A stretch of DNA of 64,000 bases from Escherichia coli (GCF_003991155.1 NZ_CP031293.1); one strand, 5' to 3'; positions 1 to 30,071 are shown, numbered from the stretch's first letter. The notes: generated by a model from the letters alone, not told the origin. Numbers and translations: made by a program.

Positions 1-57
1 CTTTCACTGCTTTTACCCTCTACCATTAGGCTAATTGCGACGAGAAAGGGACGACCT

Positions 58-186
58 ATGAATACTAACGTTTTTCGACTGCTCCTGCTGGGAAGCCTGT
101 TCAGCCTTAGCGCCTGTGTGCAGCAAAGCGAAGTGCGGCAGATGAAACACAGCGTCAGCACACTGAACCAGGAGATGACGCAACTC
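58..186 (+). pseudogene. yajI: yajI 5' fragment (lipoprotein signal peptide and N-terminus), truncated by IS insertion
   Basis: ORF 58..246 starts with a lipoprotein-type signal (LLLGSLFSLSAC); the YajI-like reading stops matching after ...EMTQL at 186 and runs into IS sequence. The rest of the protein resumes in frame at about 1940. Confidence 0.75.
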
Positions 187-197
187 ATTGACATCCT

Positions 198-217
198 CCA
201 CGCCCTGAAGGACGTGG
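198..217. repeat. IS subterminal imperfect palindrome (right-end hairpin, tnpB side)
   Basis: ccacgccctgaaggacgtgg, about 11 nt inside the inferred end; same loop motif as the hairpin at 1899..1918. Confidence 0.6.
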
Positions 218-230
218 ATCCCTGCTACGT

Positions 231-1439
231 TCAGGCTGTCGCCTGAATCATTTCGGTGGGTTCCTGCTTCAACGGGCGGCCTGACTGCACCATCCCTCCA
301 CAGGCAAGAACGGCGTGCCCCGCCGCTAAAATGTTACGAGCGCCATTTACATCGGCGTTCGCTGTATATCCACATACCTGGCATCTGAATTGACTTTGTG
401 ACAGGCGATTTTCTTTCGCTGTATGACCACAGCACGTGCAACGCTGGCTTGTGTACGCTGGCGGAACAGCAAGCACCTGACCGCCACGCCAGAGCTGCTT
501 GTACTCAAGCTGGCGGCGCATTTCATACCAGCCCTGATCCAGTACCGAACGGTTTAAACCTGATTTTGCCCGGACATTGCGTCCCGGCTGGCTGACCGTA
601 CCCGCTGCTGACTTTGACATGTTGCTGACCTTCAAATCCTCAATGACTATCATTGCGTGGTTTTTGCTGACGGTCGTTGTGACTTTGTGAAGGTAGTCCC
701 TGCGGATATTTGCGATACGGGAATGCAGTCGCTGTATTTTGCGTTTCTGCTTCTGCCAGTTATTGCTGAATTCGACCTTGCGGCTTAACTGTCGCTGAAG
801 TCTCGCCAGCGTCTTCTGGTTTTTCTGAAAACTGTTTACAGGCTCAAAGACTGTGCCATCTGACAGCGTGGCGAGTTTAGCCACGCCAGCATCCAGCCCG
901 ACCATTGATGCTGAAGGGTGAACCGGAGTGGATACTTCACTTTCTGTCTGAATACTGATGTACCACTTACCGCAGGACTGGCTGACAGTGACATTTTTCA
1001 CAACACCCGTGACCTGACGGCTGTTCCGGTAGCGCATCCAGCCCAGTTTCGGCAGAAAAATACGGCTGTTTTCCTGATCGAGCTTAACGCCCTGCGGGTA
1101 GCGGAATGCATCATTCTGTCCCCGCTTTTTGAATCGGGGAAAAGCAGCCCGCTTCTGGAAGAAGTTTTTGTAAGCCCGCTCAAGGTCTTTCAGTGACTGT
1201 TGCAATGGCTGTGAGGGCGAATCTTTAAGCCATTGCGTTCCAGTGGCGTTTTTCCACTCAACCAGCCAGGAAGCCATTTTCCCGTAAGGGATGTATTTAT
1301 TACCGGCCTCATGATTCTCATTCTGAAGCGCCAGAGCACGATTGAAAACGAAACGACATGCGCCTGCGAAGCGCCTCATTTCATGCTCCTGTTGACCACC
1401 GGGTCTTAACTGGAATTTAAATGCCTGTAGTCGTTTCAC
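231..1439 (-). CDS. tnpB: TnpB (OrfB), IS605-family RuvC-like nuclease with C-terminal zinc finger; apparently intact, 402 aa
   Basis: Track ORF 231..1439. N-terminus [13 protein letters not shown] is typical of TnpB/OrfB; C-terminal CTCCGH...[18 protein letters not shown] is the zinc-finger/RuvC-III region. GTG start read at 1439. Confidence 0.85.
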
Positions 1440-1461
1440 AGGTCAAATTATATTTTGGTCT

Positions 1462-1973
1462 GTGAAAAAAGAAACCGATATCCGGCGTGGAAGGCATTGT
1501 GTTTTCCTGATGCATGTTCACCTGGTCTTTGTCCCAAATACCGACGCCAGATTTTTGACCATGACGCGACAGAAAAACTACGCACTTACTTTTCAAATGT
1601 ATGTGCTGATTTTGAAGCTGAACGGGTTGAAATGGATGGCGAACCAGATCACGTCCATTTGTTAATTAACTATCCTCCCAAACTGGCGATATCCAGTCTG
1701 GTAAACAGCCTCAAAGGTGTATCGGGTAGGTGACTGCGACGAGATCGACCAGATATTGCAGTCAGGTATTACTACAAAGGCGTTTTGTGGAGTCCTGGCT
1801 ATTTTGCCAGTAGCTGCGGAGGTGCGCCAATATCCGTCATCCGCCAATACATTGAACAACAGCAAACACCTGGTCAGGTGGAAAACCGCGCCTTATATCC
1901 CCGCCCTGAAGGACGGGGTTTTACGGCGCACCGGATAAAGAAACCGTCAAAATCACTCAGCAAAACAGGCTGA
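1462..1973 (+). pseudogene. tnpA: tnpA (IS200-like Y1 HuH transposase), disrupted by at least two frameshifts
   Basis: Transposase motifs are spread over three frames: HVHLVFVP (1462..1665), PKYRRQ...DHVHLLINYPPKLAISSLVNSLKG (1455..1733), WSPGYFASSCGGAPISVIRQYIEQQ (1785..1973). The first shift sits at the A-run in gtcccaaatacc. Confidence 0.8.
1899..1918. repeat. IS subterminal imperfect palindrome (left-end hairpin, tnpA side)
   Basis: ccccgccctgaaggacgggg, about 20 nt inside the inferred end. Confidence 0.6.
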
Positions 1974-2344
1974 ATGCAAAATCCAGCAGTGGGGTTTACC
2001 TTCTGCCTGGAGCGAAAACACCGGCAAGACTGGAAAGCCAGATCGGTACTTTACGTATGTCGCTAGTGAATATTACGCATGATACAGATGGCACCACCCT
2101 GACGCTACGTATTCAGGGCGAGTCGAATGACCCCTTGCCCGCATTCAGCGGAACTGTTGAATATGGGCAAATTCAGGGAACAATAGACAACTTTCAGGAA
2201 ATCAATTTGCAGAATCAATTGATTAATGCCCCTGCCAGCGTCCTCGTCCCCAGCGATGTTGATATTCCGTTACAGTTAAAGGGGATTTCTGTAGAACAGT
2301 TAGACTTTGTACGTATCCACGACATTCAACCTGTTATGCAGTAA
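1940..2344 (+). pseudogene. yajI: yajI 3' fragment (remainder of lipoprotein YajI)
   Basis: In-frame continuation ETVKITQQNRLNAKSSSGVYLLPGAK... leading into track ORF 2057..2344 (MSLVNITHDTDGTTLTLRIQGESNDPLPAFSG...). Confidence 0.75.
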
Positions 2345-2469
2345 ACGTATAGCGGGGCGATTTTGTGCGTCCCGCAACATCTTTTCCCGTCATTTTGTTA
2401 CTCCGCTTACATCACCTGGATTGATAGTAAAAGTTTGCAACAAGGGTGAAAGTCAGTACAATCCCCGCC

Positions 2470-2560
2470 CGAATGTGTGTAAACGTGAACGCAATCGATT
2501 ACGTAAATGATAGAACTGTGAAACGAAACATATTTTTGTGAGCAATGATTTTTATAATAG
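2470..2560 (+). promoter_or_regulatory. tsx promoter region with CRP/CytR-type TGTGA half-sites
   Basis: TGTGA motifs at about 2517 and 2537 and an AT-rich -10-like stretch upstream of the tsx start; tsx is a known CRP/CytR/DeoR-regulated gene. Confidence 0.45.
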
Positions 2561-2642
2561 GCTCCTCTGTATACGAAATATTTAGAAACGCAATTTGCGC
2601 CTTTTTCACTCCCGCAAGGGATTTTCAAACAGTGGCATACAT

Positions 2643-3999: not shown

Positions 4000-4281
4000 T
4001 TACCAGTGACGGCGAGGTTCCATCAGCTGATGAAGAATGCGCGCAATGAGAATGTCATCGACTCTTATAACGTAATAAACAGTGTGAAACCTAAATGCGA
4101 TCTTCTTTACCTCTGGAATCGCATCATAGTCTTGCCCTATCTCGGGCATTTGAGAGAGTGTATCCAGAAAAATGCCGAGAGAGTCGGTGTAGCGATCCGC
4201 CTGCTCCTCACCAAACTTTCCCAGCGTGTAGTCATAGATCCCTCTGAAATCTTCAACAGCTTTTCCGCTAAGCTTATACAC
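4000..4281 (-). CDS. parE: ParE/RelE-superfamily type II toxin (ParE-like)
   Basis: Track ORF 4000..4314; the likely start is the GTG at 4281 (VYKLSGKAVEDF...), overlapping the antitoxin stop by 8 nt. ParE-like pattern ...YKLS..A..D...IYDY......A.R.......L..MPE.G......P......R...Y.YY.IRVDD.I.IARILH. Confidence 0.75.
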   Translation of the reverse strand: MYKLSGKAVEDFRGIYDYTLGKFGEEQADRYTDSLGIFLDTLSQMPEIGQDYDAIPEVKKIAFRFHTVYYVIRVDDILIARILHQLMEPRRHW

Positions 4282-4516
4282 GATGTTTTTGCTTCCTTTC
4301 TGCTGCGATATCACGAAGCGTCATCGAACTTTCACCGCTCTCAAGACCTTCAATAACAGCATTTCTGACAGCTTCATCCCTGGATTCTTGTTGTTCCAAT
4401 AGACGAAGCGCTGAACGCATTACTTCACTGGCCGAGCCATAACGACCAGACTGGACCATCCGTGTAATAAAACTATCTAATTGTTCGCCAACGCTTACTG
4501 AGGTAATTTTGCGCAT
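4274..4516 (-). CDS. parD: ParD-family (RHH/CopG-like) type II antitoxin
   Basis: 80 aa, MRKITSVSVGEQLDSFITRMVQSGRYGSASEVMRSALRLLEQQE...; ATG at 4516 with a GGAGA ribosome-binding site 7 nt upstream; sits immediately upstream of, and overlapping, the toxin ORF. Confidence 0.8.
   Translation of the reverse strand: MRKITSVSVGEQLDSFITRMVQSGRYGSASEVMRSALRLLEQQESRDEAVRNAVIEGLESGESSMTLRDIAAERKQKHRV

Positions 4517-29870: not shown

Positions 29871-30071
<201 letters not shown>

Follow-up and report, generated by a model that had tools for sequence, protein, structure and literature searches.

Does the tnpA gene of the insertion element in yajI still encode a transposase, and if it does not, which mutations have removed it and what follows for the mobility of the element? 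These questions are raised by a stretch of 64,000 nucleotides from Escherichia coli, the whole of which is referred to here as the window. An IS609 copy sits within the lipoprotein gene yajI in this region, and a first-pass annotation had proposed that its tnpA was inactivated by a -1 frameshift. Our analysis leads to the view, to which we assign a probability of about 95%, that tnpA of this IS609 copy is a multiply damaged pseudogene of a known element and that the copy is non-autonomous.

Positions 187-1945 of the window are 100% identical to the corresponding region of at least 40 complete E. coli genomes, including those of IAI39, 2016C-3878 and TCM3e1, and nearly all other E. coli match this region at 95-99%. 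Likewise, the 25 kb between positions 30001 and 55000 are 100% identical to 2016C-3878, MRY15-131 and other genomes. The element was named with the K-12 copy as comparison sequence and with the PGAP names, rather than with the ISfinder reference. It is 97.9% identical to the K-12 copy over 1753 bp, and PGAP names the intact homologues 'IS200/IS605-like element IS609 family transposase'. The gene content agrees with this assignment, as the element carries a gene for a Y1 (HuH, single-tyrosine) transposase, here a pseudogene, together with the accessory tnpB that characterises the IS605 group, present as an open reading frame of 402 codons.

The boundaries of the element were defined by comparison with empty sites. 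Empty yajI alleles read ...CAACTCA ATAAA GAAAC... with a single ATAAA (the site is CAACTCA|ATAAAGAAAC, and uninterrupted yajI across the insertion point is CAACTCAATAAAGAAAC). The occupied site in the window reads CAACTCA, followed by the element (TTGACATCC ... GCACCGG) and then by ATAAA GAAAC. IS609 was thus inserted directly 3' of 5'-TTTAT-3' (minus strand, 1939-1935) without duplication of the target, with its left end (LE) on the right in the window and its right end (RE) on the left, 3' of tnpB. The same ends were found at six further loci, namely ydcL-ydcO, yfeD-gltX, a tetR-like gene by ytfB, yeaQ-DUF1869, yfaV-yfaY and yedK, and at each of the seven loci the flank is ATAAA or ATAAG, which gives a TTAT core. 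A conserved tetra- or pentanucleotide at LE and the lack of a target-site duplication are as in the IS200/IS605 family. The exact ends and the TTTAT target are now defined for the yajI copy. We also considered an end at 1939 combined with a 5-nt deletion of the target, which was excluded by the real empty sites, where ATAAA is host sequence. The element at 188-1934 is fixed in yajI of an E. coli lineage to which, among others, IAI39, 2016C-3878 and TCM3e1 belong. All features are listed in the Table.

Table. Features of the yajI IS609 locus in the window, and nucleotide differences between its tnpA region and the intact gene WP_024170849.1.
Feature	Position	Strand	Basis or comparison
IS609 copy (IS200/IS605 family), 1747 bp	188..1934	minus ('top' strand)	empty-site and other-locus comparison
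Target pentanucleotide 5'-TTTAT-3' abutting LE, not duplicated	1935..1939	minus	host yajI sequence
yajI 5' fragment (lipoprotein signal peptide and first 43 codons)	58..187	plus	
yajI 3' fragment	1935..2344	plus	
tnpB (insQ-like RNA-guided endonuclease), intact, 402 aa	231..1439	minus	Pfam and NCBIfam
Predicted omega-RNA region (tnpB 3' end, RE and yajI-flank guide)	168..358	minus	inferred
RE subterminal hairpin, TCCACGTCC-TTCA-GGGCGTGGA	197..218	minus	DNA folding
LE subterminal hairpin, CCCCGTCC-TTCA-GGGCGGGG	1899..1918 (extended stem 1888-1929)	minus	DNA folding
tnpA pseudogene (Y1 HuH transposase)	1462..1877	plus	Pfam, NCBIfam, RefSeq note
Sole translatable tnpA remnant, 67-aa ORF	1462..1665	plus	ORF listing
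1-nt deletion, A of codon Thr25 (ACC) lost, GTCACCAAA -> GTCCCAAA	1533..1534	plus	alignments
Single HuH motif His64-Val65-His66 (cac gtc cat)	1650..1658	plus	alignment to solved Y1 transposases
In-frame nonsense TGA replacing Leu91 (TTA)	1731..1733	plus	alignments
Catalytic Tyr130 codon (in RQYIEQQ)	1848..1850	plus	alignment to 2f4f and 2ec2 (KKYIEEQ)
Stop-loss CAG, TAG in intact copies	1875..1877	plus	alignments
G>T, ATG>ATT at the annotated start (codon 1447-1449)	1449		WP_024170849.1
C>T, inside the 5' extension (MILWS)	1453		WP_024170849.1
A deleted, frameshift at Thr25	after 1533		WP_024170849.1
T>G, L55R, sole missense	1624		WP_024170849.1
C>T, synonymous	1718		WP_024170849.1
T>G, TTA>TGA at Leu91	1732		WP_024170849.1
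T>C, TAG>CAG, native stop lost	1875		WP_024170849.1

In the lineage of the window, yajI, which encodes a lipoprotein of the DUF3251/SadB family, is split by IS609. Consistent with an interrupted yajI, about 340 of 5,424 genomes have no contiguous yajI match at this site. At the identical locus of IAI39, RefSeq places tnpB and tnpA between two halves of the DUF3251/YajI lipoprotein gene. A further observation on the neighbourhood concerns a RelE/ParE-ParD type II toxin-antitoxin pair at 4000-4516 (minus strand), which lies between yajD and secF as in IAI39 and is presumably lacking between these genes in K-12.

That the damaged gene is a tnpA is well supported. Pfam Y1_Tnp matches the plus strand in two parts (E-values of 1.1e-20 for 1455-1730 and 7.7e-09 for 1734-1940), and the repaired TnpA protein scores 148 bits against NCBIfam transpos_IS200 (cutoff 55), covering 2-126 of the 126 model positions. 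The GTG at 1462 corresponds to Met1 of relatives of 138 aa, and at the start annotated by PGAP, 1447, the ATG of intact copies is replaced by ATT. The two reading frames described in the first-pass annotation, one with HVHLVFVP and one continuing from PKYRRQ, are both there upon translation. The first, from 1462, reads MKKETDIRRGRHCVFLMHVHLVFVP, and the second reads PKYRRQ...DHVHLLINYPPK...LKGVSGR*. The 67-aa ORF contains 24 native residues followed by out-of-frame sequence, and neither the HuH motif nor the catalytic tyrosine is part of it.

The lesions were called from an alignment of the window with 14 other IS609 sequences, one of which is the identical IAI39 locus. Three IS609 copies with an ordinary, non-pseudo tnpA of 143 aa were added later. 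Altogether, the compared copies (L001-L021) come from yajI, yfeD-gltX, ydcL-ydcO, the tetR-like gene, DUF1869, yfaV and yedK. The nearest intact gene, WP_024170849.1 at yfeD-gltX of Z1323CEC0015, differs from the tnpA region of the window at 7 nt of about 430. A comparison with intact tnpA of the same family had been proposed as a check on the frameshift, and it bears the frameshift out, as one base is missing from the window relative to every intact relative.

The position of the missing base is of interest, since the first-pass annotation had placed the -1 frameshift at a homopolymer. The segment gtcccaaatacc is located at 1531-1542, and the window sequence over the deletion site, within 1525-1545, is GTCCCAAAT. 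In the nine non-deleted IS609 copies, the corresponding codons are GTC ACC AAA/AGA TAC CGA, encoding V-T-K/R-Y-R (a reading as CTT TGT... is in the wrong frame). The window has GTC-CCAAATACCGA, so that GTC ACC AAA has become GTC CCA AA. The lost base is therefore the lone A of ACC. L019, which is intact, and the other copies of the AAA type have an AAA run just as long as that at 1536-1538 of the window. Slippage in the A run is thereby excluded by the alignment. Accordingly, the frameshift itself stands, but its attribution to a homopolymer does not. The same applies to the statement that one more A would restore VPKYRR: an additional A would indeed mend the frame, but the ancestral peptide is VTKYRR, with Thr rather than Pro. 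Residue 25 is Thr, sometimes Ala and never Pro in relatives from Salmonella, Proteus, Photorhabdus, Klebsiella, Yersinia and other bacteria, and Lys26 is invariant in the relatives.

The second break was likewise read differently at first. The first-pass account of the two breaks would be slippage of an A run from AAAA to AAA within VPKYRR, combined with a second frameshift between LKGVSGR and WSPGYF. The listing of two separate ORFs, and the fact that an extra A in the AAA run would also restore the frame, are in line with such a history. However, the ORFs at 1455-1733 and 1785-1973 lie in one and the same frame, where they are split by a TGA that is followed by LRRDRPDIAVRYYYKGVLWSPGYF, and PGAP reports an 'internal stop'. 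The break after LKGVSGR is therefore an in-frame nonsense codon (TTA>TGA) at 1731-1733 and not a second shift. Leu91 is conserved, and the relatives read RLLRRDRPD in this region. Taken together with the nine non-deleted copies, in which the base missing from the window is an A between GTC and CC, and with the Thr or Ala of the relatives, this makes a history of slippage and double frameshifting very improbable.

Two further changes were not part of the first-pass annotation, namely the loss of the native stop codon and the ATG>ATT change at 1447-1449. The latter may not matter, because the GTG at 1462 marks where the 138-aa relatives begin. As a result of the TAG>CAG stop-loss, the tnpA ORF continues across the LE hairpin and terminates within yajI at 1973, which also explains the 'missing C-terminus' note of PGAP. 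Relatives in Salmonella, Proteus, Photorhabdus, Klebsiella and Yersinia end directly after QQQTPG/S. As a separate observation, the native stop is lost in most sampled E. coli IS609 copies, L009, L011 and L019-L021 being those that differ in this respect. The stop-loss copies have a predicted C-terminal TnpA tail that is site-specific, as it is read through the LE hairpin into the flank.

Whether any remaining product could act as a transposase depends on the catalytic residues. The tnpA product aligns with solved Y1 transposases with E-values from 6e-21 to 2e-17 (2f4f, 2ec2, 2a6m/2vhg and 2xm3). In these alignments PDHVHLL pairs with PDHIHLF, and the HuH positions are invariant in relatives, as is the position of Tyr130. 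HVHLVFV had been taken for a first HuH motif. This identification has to be given up: HVHLVFV is strand beta-1, lying opposite YHFVWIPK (MHVHLVFVTKYRR on this strand is aligned to CNYHFVWIPKHRR), its H-V-H is coincidental, and the sole HuH motif lies in DHVHLL, at 1650-1658. Tyr130 is downstream of the deletion as well as of the TGA, whereas the HuH motif is downstream of the deletion but upstream of the TGA. No product thus holds both HuH (H64/H66) and Tyr130, which indicates that no TnpA is made from this copy. A UGA stop is leaky when the next base is C. Trace amounts of full-length TnpA may arise, but these would require two rare events, a leak at the TGA and a slip at C-CCA-AAT. On the basis of sequence, we infer that tnpA activity is lost, where 'inactivated' refers to the inferred functional state of the intact gene.

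The C-CCA-AAT sequence deserves closer consideration. The deletion has, as a by-product, created a heptamer of the X XXY YYZ type in the zero frame (C CCA AAT, 1533-1539), and programmed -1 ribosomal frameshifting at this site would yield ...VFVPNYRRQ... and hence a low, regulated level of TnpA. The persistence of the deletion allele in 240 genomes, and its occurrence as the only lesion in O145:H28, where TTA and TAG are kept, could be seen in this light. However, there is no downstream RNA structure (1530-1610, -9.5 kcal/mol, z of -0.23), and AAU slips poorly as an A-site codon in E. coli. Moreover, intact members of the family are in frame without conservation of the heptamer, the product would lose the invariant Lys26, and its translation in the window would still stop at the TGA at 1731, short of Tyr130. 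We therefore give programmed frameshifting virtually no chance, and the heptamer is probably a coincidence.

A single-base indel is a common assembly error, and one might ask whether tnpA is really intact and the lesion an artefact of sequencing or assembly. The frequencies of the alleles were therefore determined in 5,426 genomes, which contain roughly 11,000 IS609 places, by megablast with allele-specific 41-mers, in which the central difference leaves no 28-nt seed. The deletion allele was found at 327 places in 240 genomes and the native TAG stop at 1583 places in 1411 genomes. For Leu91, 2726 genomes have the TGA allele (3369 places) and 2531 have the TTA allele (4480 places). As the same 41-mer is present in 240 complete genomes, the deletion is a real inherited allele. 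An artefact would have to recur exactly at 327 places in 240 independent assemblies and at two different loci, with the deletion lying outside any homopolymer. The TGA allele is also carried by K-12, where it has been published (PMC2891674). The idea of an artefact, against which the independent assemblies and the PGAP call constitute our case, is thus almost certainly wrong.

The reading of tnpA as a multiply damaged pseudogene is in line with existing annotation. At the identical IAI39 locus, RefSeq lists tnpB and a tnpA pseudogene that is 'frameshifted; internal stop; incomplete'. The dead yajI tnpA is, in this sense, already known and an ordinary pseudogene. The first-pass conclusion that tnpA is inactivated is upheld by the 1-nt deletion at codon 25, the nonsense codon at Leu91 and the matching RefSeq terms 'frameshifted; internal stop'. 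The correction to be made concerns the nature of the damage, the true lesions being a 1-nt deletion outside a homopolymer, a nonsense codon and a stop-loss. For biology at large these findings carry little weight, since they represent routine decay of an insertion sequence, which RefSeq already flags and which, in the case of the K-12 copy, is partly covered in the literature. For annotation, the disruption of yajI in this lineage is of value.

We then asked what the loss of tnpA implies for mobility. Without TnpA, the element would neither be excised as a top-strand circle nor be reinserted 3' of TTTAT by 'peel and paste', and the yajI copy would behave as a fixed, non-autonomous element unless TnpA were supplied in trans. 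No second IS609 or other Y1 transposase was found in the window. IAI39 has IS609 at two places, both with the deletion allele. In TCM3e1, the yajI copy, which is 100% identical to the window, has the deletion and TGA; the copy at yfeD-gltX has both lesions and a decayed tnpB as well; and the copy at ydcL-ydcO lacks the deletion and retains TTA, but has TAA at Tyr71. With all three TCM3e1 copies lacking TnpA, the element is stranded in such genomes. Several genomes match the window at 100%, and an intact helper copy elsewhere in its own genome is still conceivable. Intact 143-aa IS609 tnpA genes are present in other E. coli strains, so that help could reach such genomes only via horizontal transfer. 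An alternative helper would be a cross-reacting Y1 transposase. The designation 'non-autonomous' therefore stands. The accompanying statement, which makes any movement depend on TnpA from another copy, is reasonable; for genomes such as TCM3e1 and IAI39, however, that copy would have to come from elsewhere.

The LE and RE hairpins, the TTTAT target and tnpB are intact, and for this reason we infer that the yajI copy stays a potential substrate for mobilisation in trans. Occasional mobility of the dead copy, driven by the TnpA of a different IS609 or by a related Y1 transposase, with the shared lesions reflecting transposition of the dead copy, is nonetheless unlikely in our judgement. It would account for the joint occurrence of the deletion and TGA at two loci, yajI and yfeD-gltX, and besides the intact ends and target it can draw on the intact IS609 tnpA genes in the species. 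However, gene conversion or recombination between copies would account at least equally well for the mosaic distribution of the lesions, there are 54 differences between the yajI and yfeD copies of TCM3e1, and none of the three TCM3e1 copies has a working tnpA. That a copy with the TGA but without the deletion is inactive is illustrated by K-12, for which a stop in the transposase gene and a lack of transposition have been described (PMC2891674). In mutation-accumulation lines, none of the 758 new insertions was attributable to IS609 (PMC5009759). Our literature search found no demonstration of transposition of IS609 itself or of activity of an intact E. coli IS609 tnpA.

The mosaic character of the lesions is apparent from the fact that all four combinations of the deletion and TGA occur among the IS609 copies, which thus fail the four-gamete test. 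In addition, TAA at Tyr71 is common to the yajI copy of fS10a and the ydcO copy of TCM3e1, and the yfeD-gltX locus alone provides a decay series with intact, stop-loss-only, deletion-only, deletion plus TGA, and deletion plus TGA plus dead-tnpB alleles. This suggests recombination or gene conversion between copies, or else mobilisation of dead copies. At least three different inactivating tnpA lesions (the A deletion, TGA at Leu91 and TAA at Tyr71) were found among the 14 distinct copies. The tnpB ORF is open in 13 of the 15 aligned sequences, corresponding to 12 of the 14 distinct copies, and the pooled pairwise pN/pS was about 0.32 for tnpB and about 0.83 for tnpA, these being crude values from a small sample of non-independent pairs. 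Judging from the open tnpB reading frames and the lower pN/pS, tnpB seems to be maintained while tnpA decays. It is conceivable, if rather doubtful, that IS609 persists in E. coli mainly as a TnpB/omega-RNA element for which tnpA is dispensable. If this were true, dead tnpA alleles would spread between loci by ectopic gene conversion or trans-mobilisation, and selection, be it for selfish homing or for a host function, would keep tnpB. The intact and decayed alleles at the same loci thus offer a modest lead for studies on TnpB retention.

The tnpB product contains the Pfam domains OrfB_IS605, Cas12f1-like_TNB and HTH_OrfB_IS605, and it scores 386 bits against NCBIfam guided_TnpB (cutoff 100). 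The LE hairpin has a folding energy of -17.3 kcal/mol (z of -2.7; DNA folding) and falls within the read-through tail of the tnpA ORF. The RE and LE hairpins are near-identical, and the ends are thus marked by subterminal hairpins rather than terminal inverted repeats, as is typical of the family. It should be noted that the GTG start codons of tnpB (1439, minus strand) and tnpA (1462) are divergent and only 22 bp (1440-1461) apart, which means that each promoter must fall inside the coding sequence of the opposite gene.

A scan of window positions 1-2600 with Rfam returned no curated omega-RNA or other RNA family above threshold. Sub-threshold matches within 175-358 (minus strand) were obtained for HgcC (23.8 bits, gathering score 50), sot0042 (17 bits, gathering score 88) and RAGATH-18 (28 bits, gathering score 44.9), which at these scores are a weak hint only. 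HgcC and sot RNAs are associated with tnpB 3' ends, and on account of this association the 175-358 segment is probably the omega-RNA scaffold of IS609 TnpB. The guide would then correspond to the yajI flank from 187 down to about 168, and TTTAT would be the presumed TAM of TnpB, a role deduced from the known IS200/IS605 mechanism. In analogy to the TnpB systems of ISDra2 and the IS605 family, an omega-RNA that covers the 3' end of tnpB and RE and continues into the yajI flank would, together with TnpB, recognise TTTAT and the adjoining yajI sequence. This target, TTTAT with the yajI flank (TGAGTTGCGTCATCTC...), is the empty yajI site. The yajI copy probably still expresses TnpB and omega-RNA, as the same analogy would predict. 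A literature search on the function of E. coli InsQ/IS609 TnpB returned nothing specific.

Lastly, the yajI copy was compared with known systems. The closest is the IS609 of K-12, located at ydcL-ydcO, with the pseudogene insP/yncK and the tnpB gene insQ/ydcM. It shares with the window the divergent gene order, the ends and the ATAAA flank, and it likewise shows TTA>TGA and TAG>CAG with an intact tnpB of 402 aa. However, it differs in its locus, which is not yajI, in the absence of the 1-nt deletion and in the presence of ATG at the annotated start. The intact IS609 copies at yfeD-gltX (Z1323CEC0015, WP_024170849.1) and at the tetR-like locus of O157:H7 FRIK944 (WP_000604943.1) represent the same element with the same ends, but their 143-aa tnpA is uninterrupted, ends in the native TAG and is not flagged as a pseudogene. 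Beyond E. coli, the Y1 HuH sequence of the window matches the TnpA structures of IS608 (2a6m/2vhg) and ISDra2 (2xm3) with E-values of 1e-18 to 1e-20. IS605 and IS608 of Helicobacter pylori and ISDra2 of Deinococcus radiodurans share with IS609 the presence of TnpB, the subterminal hairpins and the lack of a target duplication, they likewise insert 3' of a short specific sequence, and the divergent layout of tnpA and tnpB in the window is that of IS605. The targets are TTAC for IS608 and TTGAT for ISDra2. Compared with these reference elements, the similarity of the window sequence is distant and the target is TTTAT, with a TTAT core.
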